A DNA stretch of 64,000 nt from a virus (IMGVR_UViG_3300011113_000736:6610-70609), one strand, 5' to 3'; positions 40,841 through 46,612 are shown, numbered from the stretch's first letter. Notes: generated by a model not told the origin, from the letters alone. Translations and numbers: made by a program.

Positions 40841-42544
40841 ATGCGTTTCAAACAATGGCTATTACTTTCAGAGAAAATAGAGGTCAACGGAGTCCAATTC
40901 CGTGACAAATTGGATGCATTGAAACACATTTATAATAATCATCCTAATCCAGACAATTTAGTTGTCTCTTACACTTCAATTAACAAAATAGGTATAAATC
41001 CCAAAAGTCAATATAAAACACCACTTGGAATTTATTTCTATCCATTAAAATATGTTATTGATATGAATCTGGGAGTACCATTTGCTGGAGATCAACCTTA
41101 TCTTAATGTATGCGAAATTGTAAGACCAAATAAAATGTGGCACATGAAGTTAAAAACACAACCTCAAATTGGCTTAGATGTTTTGAAAAAAGCTTTTCCA
41201 AAAAAAGAAGTAGAAAATGCGATTGCTCAAATAAACACTAAAGGACTCGATATAAGAAGTAATTATTCAACTGTCTGGCTTGTAACACAATTGATTTCTA
41301 ATGAAAATCCAATATCATGGAATACTAATTTGAGAAAATTGGGCATAGATGGTTTTTTTGATCATGGCACAGGAACCATTCATACTGGTGAGCCAACACA
41401 AGGTGTTGTTTTCACTGCTAATGCTTTAAAAGTAATACATGTAATTGAAAATATTAAACAAGTATCAGATGAATCAAAATTCACAGAAGCATTACAAAAA
41501 GGAAACATTGCTGCTGTTGATTATTTCATACAAAATAAAAATGTAAGCCTTGATTACGCAATTGAAATTGCAGCAGAAAATGGGCATCTTTCTTTAGTAA
41601 AACATTTAATTGAAAAATATGATGCTGGAATATATGATGCAGTTAACGATGCTGCTAAAAATGGACACTTTGATATTGTTAAATATCTCGTTGATGAACA
41701 AAAAGCAAATATAGATAGTTTTGCTGTAGTGGAAGCAGGATCAAAAGGATATCTCGATATAGTAAAATACCTTATTGAAAAGGGTGCAAAAATAAACAAA
41801 TATGCTGTGGAATCAGCAGCTAGTCAAAATCAATTTGATGTTGTTAAATATTTACTTGGCGAAGAAGTTACTCTAAATGGTCAAAAAATAAAATTACCAG
41901 CAAATGTAGAAATTGGAACAATAGGCGATTCAGCAATTAAAAATGCAGCTAGAAACGGAAATTTTGATATTGTTAAATACCTTGTTCAAAAAGGAGGTAA
42001 AATAATAGATTTAGATATAAAACACATGATTGAAAAAAATTATATTGATATCATAGTTTATTTTCTTAGCACTGGAAAATTATCATCATATTATGTTGCC
42101 GAAGAAGCCGCCAAAAATGGAAGTTTGAATTTAATCAAAAACATTGTAAACATGGGATTTAAAATAGATGAAGAAGTATTTGTTAAAGCAGCCGATTTTG
42201 GAAACATCAAAATTGTAAAATATCTTTTGGAAGAATTAAAATTAAATGTTGGTATTGCTGATATCCAAAGATCTATTTTACATGCGGCTAATCGTGGCGT
42301 TTTTAATACTGTTTTATATCTTGCAGAAAAATACCCCAAATTAGGAGCTTTGGCAATTACTGATGCTGCTAGACATGCAAGAATAGATGTCATAAGACAT
42401 ATTATTGATAATTTAAAATCACCAACTAGCCAATTTCAGCTTAATGATGCAGCAGACAAAGCAAAAGAATATGGTAACAATGATATTGTTGATTATCTTG
42501 TATCCAAAGGTGCAAAAAGACCAGTAGACAATGCCGCAAAATAA
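40841..42544 (+). CDS. Paralogue 1: CTS + conserved ~205-aa ART-like domain + ankyrin repeats
   Basis: AAENGHLSLVKHLIE-type repeats. Confidence 0.8.
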   Translation: MRFKQWLLLSEKIEVNGVQFRDKLDALKHIYNNHPNPDNLVVSYTSINKIGINPKSQYKTPLGIYFYPLKYVIDMNLGVPFAGDQPYLNVCEIVRPNKMWHMKLKTQPQIGLDVLKKAFPKKEVENAIAQINTKGLDIRSNYSTVWLVTQLISNENPISWNTNLRKLGIDGFFDHGTGTIHTGEPTQGVVFTANALKVIHVIENIKQVSDESKFTEALQKGNIAAVDYFIQNKNVSLDYAIEIAAENGHLSLVKHLIEKYDAGIYDAVNDAAKNGHFDIVKYLVDEQKANIDSFAVVEAGSKGYLDIVKYLIEKGAKINKYAVESAASQNQFDVVKYLLGEEVTLNGQKIKLPANVEIGTIGDSAIKNAARNGNFDIVKYLVQKGGKIIDLDIKHMIEKNYIDIIVYFLSTGKLSSYYVAEEAAKNGSLNLIKNIVNMGFKIDEEVFVKAADFGNIKIVKYLLEELKLNVGIADIQRSILHAANRGVFNTVLYLAEKYPKLGALAITDAARHARIDVIRHIIDNLKSPTSQFQLNDAADKAKEYGNNDIVDYLVSKGAKRPVDNAAK

Positions 42545-42565
42545 AACAACTGCACTAAATAATTT

Positions 42566-44431: not shown

Positions 44432-44434
44432 TTT

Positions 44435-46612
44435 ATGCGTTTCAAAGAATGGCTATTACTTTCAGAGAAAATAGAAGTCAACGGAGTCCAATTCCGTGAC
44501 AAATTAGATGCATTAAAATACATTTATAACAACCATCCCAGTCCAGAAAATTTAGTTGTTTCTTATACAGAAATAAACAAGATCGGCATTAATCCAAAAA
44601 GTAAATGGGCAACACCAATTGGAATTTATTTCTATCCATTAAAATATGTCATTGATAGGGAACTAAATGTGCCATTTGCTGGAAATAAAGCTTATATCAA
44701 TGTGTGTGAAATTGTAAGACCAAATAAAATTCTTCATATGCAAAAATCAACTGAACCACAACTTGGGATTGACTTGCTTAATAAAACATTCACACATGAC
44801 AAAATAGAACAAGTTATGGAGGAGATCGGCAAATCAGGTTCTGAATATAGAAGCAATTACTCAACTGTCTGGCTTGCAACACAATTGATTTCTAATAAAA
44901 ATCCAATATCATGGAATACTAATTTGAGAAAATTAGGTATAGATGGTTTCTTTGATCATGGCACAGGAACTATTCACACTAACGAACCAACTCAAGGTGT
45001 TGCTTTAACTGCTAACGCTCTAAAAGTAATACATGTCATAGAAAATGTAATGTCTCCAAAAGAAAAAGATATTGTGCCTTATGAAATTCAACAAAATATT
45101 TTACAACATGTTAAAAACAACAACATAAACAATTTGTCGAAATTGCTTAAGAAATTCCCAATACCAGAAAATGCTGTGTATTACGCATCAGAATTAGGTA
45201 ACCTTGATATGGTTAAATTTTTAGTTAATAAAAAAGCATATATAAGTGATGAAGCGGTTTATGCCGCAATAAAAATTAATAATTTGGAAATAGTAAAATA
45301 TTTAGTCGAAGAATTGCTGGCAAAAGGTCGAAAAATACCAATTGATTCTGTAGAACTTTCAAATGAATATGCTGAAAAAGATGTGCAAGAATTCCTTGTA
45401 TCAAAAGGTGCAAAAATAACTAGCTCAGCTGTAAAAGATGCTATCGATTCTAAAGAATTTAGTACCGTTAAATATTTCATAGATAACAATGCTGAAATTG
45501 ATTATAAAATAATGGAGCATCTGTCTTCCCTTATAAAAAATAATCCTAACTCTGAAGAATATATTGATATTTTCAAATATATTGTAAAAAACTCAAAAGA
45601 TATTAGTATTAAACAAGATGCAATTGCTTATGCAATTCAATCTGAAAATGAAAATTTATTAAATAATATTCTCGAAGATGAAAAATTTGAAATAAATAGT
45701 AACACAGTAATTGATTATAAAACAATGGAGCATTTGTCTTCCCTTATAAAAAATAATCCTAACTCTAAAGAATATATTGATATTTTCAAATATATTGTAA
45801 AAAACTCAAAAGATATTAGTATTAAACAAGATGCAATTGCTTATGCAATTCAATCTGAAAATGAAAATTTATTAAATAATATTCTAGAAGATGAAAAATT
45901 TGAAATAAGTAGTAACACAGTTTATTACGCAATGAAACAAGGAAAATTTGATGTAGCCAAGTATCTTTTAAACAAAGTAGGAGACAAAGGTCAGTATGAT
46001 GCATCTTTAAAGATAGCAGCAGCATCTGGCAACAAGGAAATGGTAGATATTCTTGTTGACAAATCTAATACTCCAGACGCTGCGATAGATGCAGCAGAAA
46101 ATGGTCATTTTAATATTGCTAAATACATTGTAGATAAAAAAGGTATACCATCGTATGCCAGTTTGATTGCAATGGCTTTAAATTATGCCGAAAAAGAAAA
46201 AATAAAAGATTATAGTGATGTTTTCAATTTTATTAAACACCTTGTGGAAGAAAAGAAATATCCAATAAACCGTGGCAATGTAACATCAGCAATTTTGACA
46301 GGAGAAGTCGATTTAGTTAAATACCTGCTTGATCATCTTGACAATAGTGTTAAAATAAATGAATCAGAAGCAACAAAGTATGCAATAATTTCAAAAAATA
46401 TTGATATGATAAAATATCTCGTAGAAGATAAAAAATTCAAATTATCAGATGAGGCAATAGGATGGGCTGTAAATGGCGGCGATATTAACATCATACGATA
46501 CCTGATTAATAATGGTGCAAAAATATCAAAACAAGATGTTCAATATTACGCCAAAGAACTAGGCAAAGAACATTATATCGTAAAATTATTGGAGAAAAAT
46601 ATAAATCAATAA
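44435..46612 (+). CDS. Paralogue 3: CTS + same ~205-aa domain + ankyrin repeats
   Basis: ASELGNLDMVKFLV, AAENGHFNIAKYIV. Confidence 0.8.
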   Translation: MRFKEWLLLSEKIEVNGVQFRDKLDALKYIYNNHPSPENLVVSYTEINKIGINPKSKWATPIGIYFYPLKYVIDRELNVPFAGNKAYINVCEIVRPNKILHMQKSTEPQLGIDLLNKTFTHDKIEQVMEEIGKSGSEYRSNYSTVWLATQLISNKNPISWNTNLRKLGIDGFFDHGTGTIHTNEPTQGVALTANALKVIHVIENVMSPKEKDIVPYEIQQNILQHVKNNNINNLSKLLKKFPIPENAVYYASELGNLDMVKFLVNKKAYISDEAVYAAIKINNLEIVKYLVEELLAKGRKIPIDSVELSNEYAEKDVQEFLVSKGAKITSSAVKDAIDSKEFSTVKYFIDNNAEIDYKIMEHLSSLIKNNPNSEEYIDIFKYIVKNSKDISIKQDAIAYAIQSENENLLNNILEDEKFEINSNTVIDYKTMEHLSSLIKNNPNSKEYIDIFKYIVKNSKDISIKQDAIAYAIQSENENLLNNILEDEKFEISSNTVYYAMKQGKFDVAKYLLNKVGDKGQYDASLKIAAASGNKEMVDILVDKSNTPDAAIDAAENGHFNIAKYIVDKKGIPSYASLIAMALNYAEKEKIKDYSDVFNFIKHLVEEKKYPINRGNVTSAILTGEVDLVKYLLDHLDNSVKINESEATKYAIISKNIDMIKYLVEDKKFKLSDEAIGWAVNGGDINIIRYLINNGAKISKQDVQYYAKELGKEHYIVKLLEKNINQ
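45497..45921 (+). repeat. 213-bp near-perfect in-frame tandem duplication
   Basis: IDYKxMEHLSSLIKNNPNS...EKFEIxSNTV twice (starts 45497 and 45710). Confidence 0.92.

Follow-up and report, generated by a model that had tools for sequence, protein, structure and literature searches.

Tandem genes of a huge T4-like phage may encode capsid-packaged effectors with a constant ART-like head and exchangeable tails

A stretch of 64,000 nucleotides of viral DNA (the window; record IMGVR_UViG_3300011113_000736, positions 6610-70609) carries three tandem paralogous genes on its plus strand, called here g1 (40841-42544, 567 amino acids, aa), g2 (42566-44431, 621 aa) and g3 (44435-46612, 725 aa). Each of them encodes an 11-residue N-terminal tag, a constant domain of about 205 residues (the head) and a C-terminal tail built of repeats. 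We propose, at odds that we put at about 50%, that the products are packaged into the capsid and injected into the host as two-part effectors with exchangeable targeting tails, and that the head is related to the ADP-ribosyltransferase (ART) domains of phage polyvalent proteins (ART-PolyVal). An earlier reading of this DNA, made by a model from the letters alone (the sequence-only reading), had marked the same three open reading frames (ORFs), which were recovered here with identical limits.

Three paralogues with a common head and different tails

Protein alignment of g1-g3 revealed 150 or more invariant columns within residues 1-204, and almost none past the motif VIEN. The heads comprise residues 1-205 of g1 (40841..41455, +), for which modelling and fold searches point to a divergent ART-PolyVal-like fold, residues 1-207 of g2, including a 3-aa insertion (42566..43186, +), and residues 1-204 of g3 (44435..45046, +). 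Identities between heads are 86.6% (g1-g2), 76.1% (g1-g3) and 77.8% (g2-g3), and at the DNA level the three pairs match at 552/621, 491/612 and 510/621 positions. The DNA identity spans from about -29 to about +625 nucleotides (nt) from the ATG and is at chance level outside these limits. This pattern of shared tag, shared head and sharp junction is observed directly and is far beyond chance, in agreement with the sequence-only reading, which had noticed both the tag and the head of about 205 aa common to the three genes and their abrupt divergence after VIEN, where protein columns and DNA identity collapse together.

The tails also follow the order described earlier, that is, ankyrin repeats, a different repeat of about 30 aa, and ankyrin repeats again: Ank_2 was found in g1 and g3, and a 90-bp repeat in g2. 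The g1 tail (41456..42544, +) holds at least 9 ankyrin units (Ank_2 E 3.8e-31; 9 repeat-motif matches), and the g3 tail (45047..46612, +) at least 12 motif matches (Ank_2 E 2e-30, 6 stretches), the two being 31% identical over 187 aa. Within the g3 tail, Tandem Repeats Finder (TRF) detected a tandem duplication of a 71-aa block (45496..45921, +; 213 bp x 2.0, 97% identical), which is recent. The g2 tail (43187..44431, +) is composed of about 12 units of a helical repeat of about 30 aa (K.EIAKILG.ENINKL...), with a TRF period of 90 bp (30 aa) x 6.7 at 43529-44128, diverged copies flanking it, and a super-period of 267 bp x 2.9 at 43358-44126. This tail has no significant similarity to those of g1 and g3, no ankyrin was found in g2 by the Pfam scan, and the tail gave neither a significant Pfam or PDB sequence match nor a usable ESM feature match. 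The structural clusters nearest to the ESM Atlas model of g2 are ALTTAQ and HEAT-type repeats (template-modelling score 0.5-0.67), and the tail is predicted to form an alpha-solenoid of no curated family.

Metagenome contigs provided some observations on the same tails. In contigs from 3 runs of 3 studies, position 43490 is joined to 43971, leaving a g2 tail that is 480 nt shorter, with 36 other letters between the two. A contig of one run skips from position 44408 to 46629 and lacks g3; its flank measures only 24 nt, and the g3 tail has almost no depth. These short-g2 and g3-less variants are contig-level hints within repeats, not proof. Contigs over the locus break at the repeated heads, where many backward joints between head copies are indistinguishable from assembly ambiguity, and such joints were not counted as recombinants.

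Constant head and variable tail across the family

When 1.84 billion cluster representatives were searched exhaustively with HMMER, the head was found in 2436 proteins at E <= 1e-3 and in 1239 of these at E <= 1e-10. Total lengths range from 90 to 2058 aa and the head is N-terminal in most members; some consist of the head only, such as P0005 (226 aa) and L028:3082-3795 (237 aa). A cultured phage, Rhodothermus phage RM378, encodes two members, of 474 and 623 aa. Moreover, a scan of IMG/VR yielded 283 relatives, from which 63 loci were kept, 46 of them distinct after merging duplicates. Two to nine head copies lie within about 12 kb in 17 of these 46 viral loci, and each of the 78 pairs of heads from one locus aligns at E <= 1e-5. 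Among the 61 pairs in which both tails reach at least 60 aa, 15 tail pairs align at that threshold, 6 align weakly and 40 do not, and in each of the 15 aligned pairs head identity exceeds tail identity. The architecture of constant head and variable tail, noticed originally in three genes, is thereby seen family-wide: the tails of relatives differ when compared, and the invariance that would have spoken against the idea was not found. The largest array, with at least 9 head genes in a row, is on one 167.5-kb viral contig (L028 and L051), where the heads are 23-43% identical and most tails are unrelated.

Curated families are rare in these tails. The Pfam scan covered 82 of 88 unique proteins, six near-duplicate or truncated ones having been dropped, and matched any family in 5/82 relatives: sigma-70 region 1.1 once and DUF6934 four times, none of them a toxin. 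The protein with sigma-70 region 1.1 in its tail (L030:9959-12618, on a 382-kb phage contig; E 6.8e-12; 1/82) hints that RNA polymerase may be the target of at least one paralogue. In a set of 37 from the 150 best representatives, 3 have an ankyrin tail and 1 has HEAT repeats.

Comparison of g1-g3 with three relatives separates the history of heads from that of tails. P0002 is 91% identical to g1 in the tail and 78.5% in the head, P0003 is 69% identical to g3 in the tail and 84% in the head, and P0001 (from L004) is 45% identical to g2 in the tail and 86% in the head; on these comparisons, the tail classes are older than the source phage. In addition, the heads are mosaic: over nt 1-270, g1 and g2 match at 261/270 positions, while over nt 271-360 the match between g2 and g3 (81/90) surpasses that between g1 and g2 (68/90). 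Taken together, the mosaic heads and the tail and head identities of these relatives suggest that the heads have undergone gene conversion or have recombined with one another, VIEN marking the junction.

The arrangement recalls polymorphic toxins and MuF-effector fusions, which also combine constant and variable modules, form arrays of paralogues and recombine at a sharp junction. In those systems, however, a constant N-terminal delivery part is followed by a variable C-terminal toxin and an adjacent immunity gene, whereas the constant part of g1-g3 is enzyme-like and the variable part is a repeat of the binding type. No immunity-type gene is evident at g1-g3, no small gene follows each paralogue, and Pfam finds no toxin domain in the tails. 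The analogy with polymorphic effectors drawn in the sequence-only reading consequently has to be inverted, as here the enzyme is presumed to lie in the constant part and the binder in the variable part.

An N-terminal tag resembling the T4 capsid-targeting sequence

All three products start with M[RH]FK[QE]WLLLSE (g1, MRFKQWLLLSE, 40841..40873; g2, 42566-42598; g3, 44435-44467; all +), in which L-S-E at residues 9-11 is a putative site of the prohead protease. The sequence-only reading had seen this tag without recognising its likeness to the T4 capsid-targeting sequence (CTS); if that is what the tag is, the mechanism changes to one of delivery from the capsid. A strict pattern, M-x(1-2)-F-[KRN]-x-[WFY]-[LIF], was searched for in the 74 non-overlapping ORFs of at least 80 aa in the window. 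It heads 15 of the 74 ORFs and occurs at 1 of 361 internal Met positions, and 12 of the 15 tagged ORFs lie between 35.8 and 51.5 kb. Besides g1-g3, this island of otherwise unrelated tagged genes (35839..51545, both strands) includes the ORFs at 35839-36996 (+), 38860-40170 (+), 40167-40754 (-), 46632-47093 (-), 47168-47743 (+), 49363-49992 (+), 50001-50324 (+), 50586-51152 (+) and 51273-51545 (+), the last of which starts with MKTFNEYLKE; other variants in the window are MNFKQWL, MTTFKQFLE and MQSFRLWLE.

The tag is not restricted to this record. In related contigs (L004, L005, L007 and L011), genes that lie next to head-family genes and are unrelated to them carry it too. In the family at large, [LIVMF]-x-E occurs between residues 3 and 16 in 183 of the 227 proteins whose head is N-terminal, compared with 27-69 of 227 in five control windows. 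Many family N-termini read ...[LIV]-x-E-A-R-R-N-P.

A conserved element precedes each paralogue, from about -29 to -1 (g1, 40812..40840; g2, 42537-42565; g3, 44406-44434; all +). It carries ...CTAAATAA.. right before the ATG, lacks a Shine-Dalgarno sequence, and is identical between genes at 16-19/25 positions in the -29..-5 window, falling to chance level farther out. Most tagged genes (35800-51550) likewise have [ACT]TAAATAA 3-5 nt before the ATG and no Shine-Dalgarno sequence, whereas the structural genes of the phage head (133-8436) have ribosome-binding sites of the GGAG or AGGTG type, which suggests that two classes of expression signal may coexist in one phage. The TAAATAA element recalls what we take to be the T4 late promoter, TATAAATA.

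The resemblance to T4 is considerable. The T4 CTS, MKTYQEFIAE, is removed inside the prohead, and these 10 residues alone suffice for packaging (available text of PMC8442874). According to the parts of PMC9026906 available, gp21 cleaves after L/I-X-E, and the packaged proteins that are trimmed and ejected include the ART Alt. The window encodes its own T4 gp21-type prohead core serine protease (2504..3166, -; Peptidase_S77 E 1.3e-26), which could act on the products of g1-g3. T4 internal proteins are, in the available portion of PMC3012670, diverse anti-defence (anti-restriction) proteins whose only common part is the CTS. The proteins IPI, IPII and IPIII resemble g1-g3 in having a tag of about 10 residues (MKTYQEFIAE vs MKTFNEYLKE and M.FK.WL..E) that ends in Glu after a hydrophobic residue, in carrying it on otherwise unrelated proteins clustered in a variable locus, and in belonging to a phage with a gp21-type protease. 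They differ in being small and basic, of 8-20 kDa (PMC9026906, in the part available), whereas g1-g3 would give multidomain products of 65-83 kDa. On this analogy, packaging of the g1-g3 products into the capsid is likely, by a clear though not wide measure.

Some individual tagged proteins deserve mention. A NUDIX hydrolase (23346-23774, -; tag MSSFKDFF..) and a flavodoxin/FMN-reductase-like protein (8573-9454, +; tag MESFNNYIE..) may be packaged as well; Nudix proteins are often packaged into virions, as are phage ARTs, especially in myoviruses (PMC9503650, as far as its accessible text goes). The tagged protein of 436 aa at 38860-40170 (+) carries an FYHGTS motif like strand 1 of ARTs of the H-Y-E type and matches phrog_13493 (function unknown, E 5.6e-8), with no Pfam or PDB sequence match; hhalign aligned it to the head profile only over the tag, and it may be another ART-like effector. 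The tagged protein of 153 aa at 46632-47093 (-) matches positions 1323-1458 of the 2185-position phrog_938 ('endolysin', E 2e-17), which correspond to an internal module within virion proteins of very large size. The same tag, MKFKQWLIIE, also heads a bona fide ART-PolyVal gene of a related contig (L078:1100-1594, -; YHGT present, 68.7 bits).

Predicted fold of the head domain

Sequence searches with the head were uninformative. Nothing significant was found in Pfam, PHROGs, NCBIfam or PDB sequences (phmmer and profile searches), PADLOC matched only an ankyrin region, a megablast search with the locus found nothing among 50,697 phage records, and tblastn of the head gave only 3 weak records. 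The head was then modelled with AlphaFold from an alignment of 39 short homologues, with a mean confidence (pLDDT, predicted local distance difference test) of 93.7 and a predicted template-modelling score of 0.88. The model has strands at residues 40-45, 64-68, 87-93, 99-102, 171-175, 186-190 and 196-203, and a helical insert of about 55 residues at 107-166.

In a Foldseek-independent search of 48,161 PDB chains, rank 1 was chain B of the cyanophage A4 pre-ejectosome (Z 6.5, 180 residues aligned, root-mean-square deviation 6.0), and ranks 2-31 were ART-fold entries (Z 3.7-5.6), namely ParT, NatT, MbcT, cholix, exotoxin A, diphtheria-toxin homologues and PARPs, together with an anti-CRISPR protein that we take to be an ART. 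Re-scoring of the Foldseek list gave 39 chains with Z >= 5; ART domains made up 49 of the 50 rows listed (Z 4.8-5.7), the top row being the phage ejection protein. The structural neighbours are mainly ARTs of the H-Y-E type. Among predicted viral structures (BFVD), 15 matched at E <= 1e-3, four of them named ART-PolyVal-like or PolyVal ADP-ribosyltransferase (best E 1.7e-5), and the matches also include a large protein of cyanopodophage Pf-WMP3. Moreover, among the nearest ESM Atlas clusters (0.93-0.94), two carry PF18760, the Pfam model of ART-PolyVal, on 29% and 58% of their members.

The A4 ejection protein (PDB 9k3a chain B, probably gp27) is like the g1-g3 products as proposed here in being stored in the capsid and ejected, and its structural match to the head is the best in PDB (Foldseek E 3.4e-4, Z 6.5). 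It differs in that no sequence or profile similarity to the head could be found, in being a component of a podovirus pre-ejectosome, and in that the alignment is spread over residues 914..1610 with a root-mean-square deviation of 6.0. A-4L gp27 has no Pfam family.

Profiles built from ART-PolyVal proteins lead to the same family. Comparison sequences were taken from related viral records, as a word-based homologue search with one ART-PolyVal protein returned only itself; bona fide ART-PolyVal genes, which score 35-92 bits in related contigs against a PF18760 gathering score of 31.2 bits, were found in 2/5 and 8/35 of these records, and several adjoin head-family genes. A seed hidden Markov model (HMM) of 6 ART-PolyVal sequences matches the heads of two family members (i-E 8.5e-5 and 2.1e-4), and over the ORFs of the window g2 (E 0.025) and g1 (E 0.036) rank first, with g3 fifth (E 0.25). 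When 238 heads were compared with 13 ART-PolyVal sequences, hhalign produced one collinear alignment of 163 columns (E 6.7e-4, probability 27%). The shared motifs follow the same order: [ST]-[FY]-T against Y-H-G-T, then G-I-Y, G-x-D-G and V-F....K. A polyvalent protein of 2058 aa, P0033, has the head at residues 206-374 beside PBECR5 nuclease, lytic transglycosylase and NUDIX domains, and a separate ART-PolyVal-like stretch at 985-1157; because it contains both, head and ART-PolyVal are distinct modules.

Since four partly independent lines agree, we consider an ART-PolyVal-like fold highly probable. The guess of the sequence-only reading was thus sustained as far as the fold is concerned, as the modelled head matches ARTs almost exclusively, with BFVD E-values down to 1.7e-5, and no non-ART fold emerged, although the PDB scores are middling. 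Further limits are that PF18760 is unmatched even at E 10 and that F, Y or M replaces the strand-1 His throughout the family; use of NAD+ (nicotinamide adenine dinucleotide) and transfer of ADP-ribose are accordingly put forward below as a proposal.

Conserved polar site and possible catalysis

Conservation was counted over the 238 family heads. The motif TP.GIY.YP contains Y65 (235/238) and Y67 (236/238), both in the predicted strand 64-68, and further residues are nearly as constant: K49 (226/238), N53 (228/238), D174 (233/238), E184 (230/238), Q187 (229/238) and, to a lesser extent, H181 (201/238). The R-S-E triad of the Alt/ModA/ModB type does not fit these heads, as no Arg is conserved in strand 1 and no Pfam ART model was matched. 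The catalytic Glu of exotoxin A, cholix and PARP1 presumably falls near E184-Q187, by a rough reckoning from alignment ends and the residue numbers of those enzymes rather than from superposition. The head thus keeps the Tyr, is without the canonical His, and probably has Glu or Gln at the catalytic strand.

To our knowledge, nearly all active ARTs have His or Arg in strand 1. The head would then be either an ART that grips NAD+ differently, an enzyme resembling NAD+ hydrolases, or a pseudo-enzyme whose ligand site is new, and on the residues kept we regard catalysis on NAD+ as a tentative proposal, with somewhat lower than even prospects.

The comparison with ART-PolyVal (PF18760; Tox-ART-HYD2 clade), a domain of polyvalent proteins from both phages and conjugative elements, has two sides. 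In polyvalent proteins, the ART domain has H in strand 1, Y in strand 2 and D in strand 5 (Iyer et al. 2017, PMC5512222, in its available part). The head shares with it the predicted fold and the collinear G-I-Y, G-x-D-G and ..V-F....K, and both occur in phages, within the polyvalent protein P0033 and, for the head, beside bona fide ART-PolyVal genes; delivery from the virion is presumed for both. The head differs in having [ST]-[FYM]-T in place of YHGT, no Pfam match, near-invariant K49, N53, D174, H181, E184 and Q187, the helical insert at 107-166, a position that is usually N-terminal, a variable tail and an organization in tandem arrays. T4 Alt is likewise an ART-fold protein of a T4-type phage, which is built into the prohead, trimmed by gp21, ejected and modifies host proteins (PMC9026906, available parts), and T4 also has paralogous ARTs with different targets. 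Nevertheless, Alt, ModA and ModB belong to the R-S-E clade and have no ankyrin or solenoid tails, whereas g1-g3 have nearly identical heads and only the tails differ.

Proposed mechanism

Packaging, cleavage, ejection, catalysis and the choice of target by the tails are steps that we infer, and together they would make the following pathway. A huge T4-like phage would make the products of g1-g3 late, as internal proteins of its head. Acting like the T4 CTS, the 11-residue tag (M-x-F-K-x-W-L-L-L-S-E) would bring each protein into the prohead scaffolding core, and the gp21-type protease would remove it after L-S-E. The mature protein would be ejected with the DNA into the host, as T4 Alt and the internal proteins are. 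The constant head would be a derived domain of the ART-PolyVal type with a polar site that is remodelled yet strongly conserved (K49, N53, Y65, Y67, D174, H181, E184, Q187), and its transferase or hydrolase activity would be directed at NAD+ or a related nucleotide. The variable tail, ankyrin or alpha-solenoid, would bind a particular host protein and in that way pick the target, while gene conversion between tandem copies would keep the heads alike and the tails would be exchanged or diverge at the VIEN junction.

Several observations weigh against this reading. Regarding the fold, all Z values in PDB are below 8, and unrelated models can reach 7-8, so that the PDB result alone is insufficient; apart from the A4 chain, the best Foldseek E-value in PDB is 0.09. 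Regarding the relation to ART-PolyVal, PF18760 does not match the head at E <= 10 in the whole 70.6-kb record, nor any of 42 aligned family members at E <= 1, and the hhalign probabilities between head and ART-PolyVal are low (43% and 27%). Position 44, which motif order and the low-confidence hhalign alignment equate with the ART His, is F in 159, Y in 36, M in 36 and H in 0 of 238 heads, and D170, the Asp of GxDG that is HMM-aligned to the strand-5 Asp, is present in g1-g3 and in 151/238 relatives; with His or Arg so nearly universal in active ARTs, the absence of the strand-1 His means that the head could be a pseudo-enzyme or have other chemistry. Regarding packaging, the argument is one of analogy throughout, several tagged neighbours have a hydrophobic residue and Glu with no spacer in place of a strict L/I-x-E, and the tagged ORF at 23346-23774 has no Glu in its first 14 residues. 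Finally, the head family has no member in LR756511, the complete relative nearest in capsid protein, and none of the RNA runs is listed as containing the g1-g3 locus.

Alternative explanations

The alternative that survives best, which we nonetheless consider unlikely, takes the head for a non-catalytic pseudo-ART, a constant structural module for capsid entry or exit, DNA contact or ejectosome assembly, with the tails as payload that binds or inhibits host defence or housekeeping proteins, following the logic of MuF effectors and polymorphic toxins. It draws on the missing canonical His and the variable D170, and on the identity of the best structural match, a virion-internal protein (A4 pre-ejectosome chain B, probably the 1717-aa gp27) that lines the first DNA circle; that match, however, comes with no detectable sequence similarity between head and A4 gp27 (hhalign probability 0.14%). 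A constant N-terminus with a variable C-terminus is the layout of delivery and payload, and the BFVD matches include a fusion of capsid maturation protease with MuF as well as large polyvalent-protein-associated domains, but in P0033 the head sits among enzymes. In addition, the T4 CTS alone suffices for packaging, other tagged genes of the island do without a head, and some family members (such as P0005 and L028:3082-3795) are head-only. Seven polar or aromatic residues are kept in 226-236 of 238 heads and H181 in 201/238, among relatives down to about 25% identity, which is typical of an active or ligand site.

It is distinctly less probable that the g1-g3 products stay unpackaged and, like T4 ModA and ModB, are enzymes made in the infected cell to take over the host from its cytoplasm, with the tag serving as a feature of translation initiation or of leaderless mRNA, as a degradation or localisation signal, or being the remnant of a recombination cassette. 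The location of the genes in an island of low GC content, about 28-32% compared with 43-48%, apart from the head gene module, would suit this explanation, and so would the TAAATAA 3-5 nt before the ATG with no Shine-Dalgarno sequence, unlike the structural genes, which may denote one regulatory class with constrained 5' ends. The tag, nevertheless, is kept at the protein level with varied codons and residues, and is hence more than a DNA element; it is like the T4 CTS in length, pattern and terminal Glu, the window encodes a gp21-type protease, and N-termini with hydrophobic-x-Glu recur in distant family members that have quite different tags.

Lastly, a chance likeness, by which the head would be an unrelated alpha/beta domain of a common arrangement, is very improbable: PDB Z values of 4.8-6.5 are within the range of models that have no true match and the Pfam ART models are unmatched, but the lists of fold matches are almost purely ART, BFVD returns named ART-PolyVal-like proteins at Foldseek probability 1.00 (E 1.7e-5 to 5e-4), independent sequence profiles and language-model neighbours lead to the same family, and the shared motifs GIY.., G.DG and VF....K are collinear.

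Phage context and neighbouring genes

The source record is a virus contig of 70.6 kb, with an estimated completeness of 16% (CheckV). The window encodes a Gp23 major capsid protein (E 4.7e-86), a Portal_T4 protein (E 3.4e-72) and a T4-type terminase. The capsid protein is 74% identical to that of LR756511, an uncultured phage of 595 kb, whereas its identity to the counterparts in cultured T4-like phages is about 30-34%. The window is one piece of the genome of a huge T4-like phage. The array of head-domain genes is accessory, because LR756511 has no copy. The genes g1-g3 lie in a stretch of low GC content, roughly 27-35% over 8-52 kb, compared with 37-50% in the flanks with the genes of the phage head.

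Other features of the window were recorded. The portal gene (5908-8436, -) contains an intein, with Intein_splicing at residues 121-336 and Portal_T4 at 341-725. A cluster for sugar modification at 23912-34374 encodes a sulfotransferase, two GT2 glycosyltransferases, a xylose-isomerase-like TIM barrel, methyltransferases, an HPAT-like transferase and a GH130 phosphorylase-like protein. Near the island of tagged genes are a tRNA-Asn(GTT) gene (38728-38803, -) and a gene for a protein with sigma-70 region 2 (36989-37891, -; E 2.3e-5).

Implications for huge T4-like phages

The system described here is not of a new kind, as it builds on the known ART-PolyVal domains, T4 Alt and the T4 CTS; the family is large, unnamed and experimentally tractable. 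The literature consulted holds no description of the head family or of ART-ankyrin fusions in phages, with 0 occurrences of the word 'ankyrin' in PMC9503650, PMC5512222 and PMC7824862; supplementary tables are outside this scope and may list the family. With at least 2436 clusters (at 50% identity) and no curated model, naming the head would annotate thousands of phage proteins. Moreover, the loss of the canonical His, combined with the strict retention of other polar residues, recommends the head for testing whether the ART fold can host new chemistry.

If the tag is a working CTS, it would allow the genes for injected proteins to be predicted in uncultured giant phages of the T4-like type, and it could be used for packaging of cargo, as the T4 CTS is. 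If the proposed reading as a whole is true, huge T4-like phages would carry ready-made effectors in the capsid, made of one catalytic head and different binding tails, so that several host targets could be struck at the moment of DNA entry and recombination would allow quick retargeting. A bolder version, which we hold to be rather unlikely, would see in the head a new enzyme on the ART scaffold, with its own invariant set of residues and a chemistry or substrate perhaps unlike classical ADP-ribosylation, in a family of capsid-delivered effectors whose targets are set by exchangeable tails and whose gene-converted heads serve as the recombination handle for tail shuffling. If that were true, phages would have in these genes their own version of polymorphic effector cassettes, built on the inverse logic.

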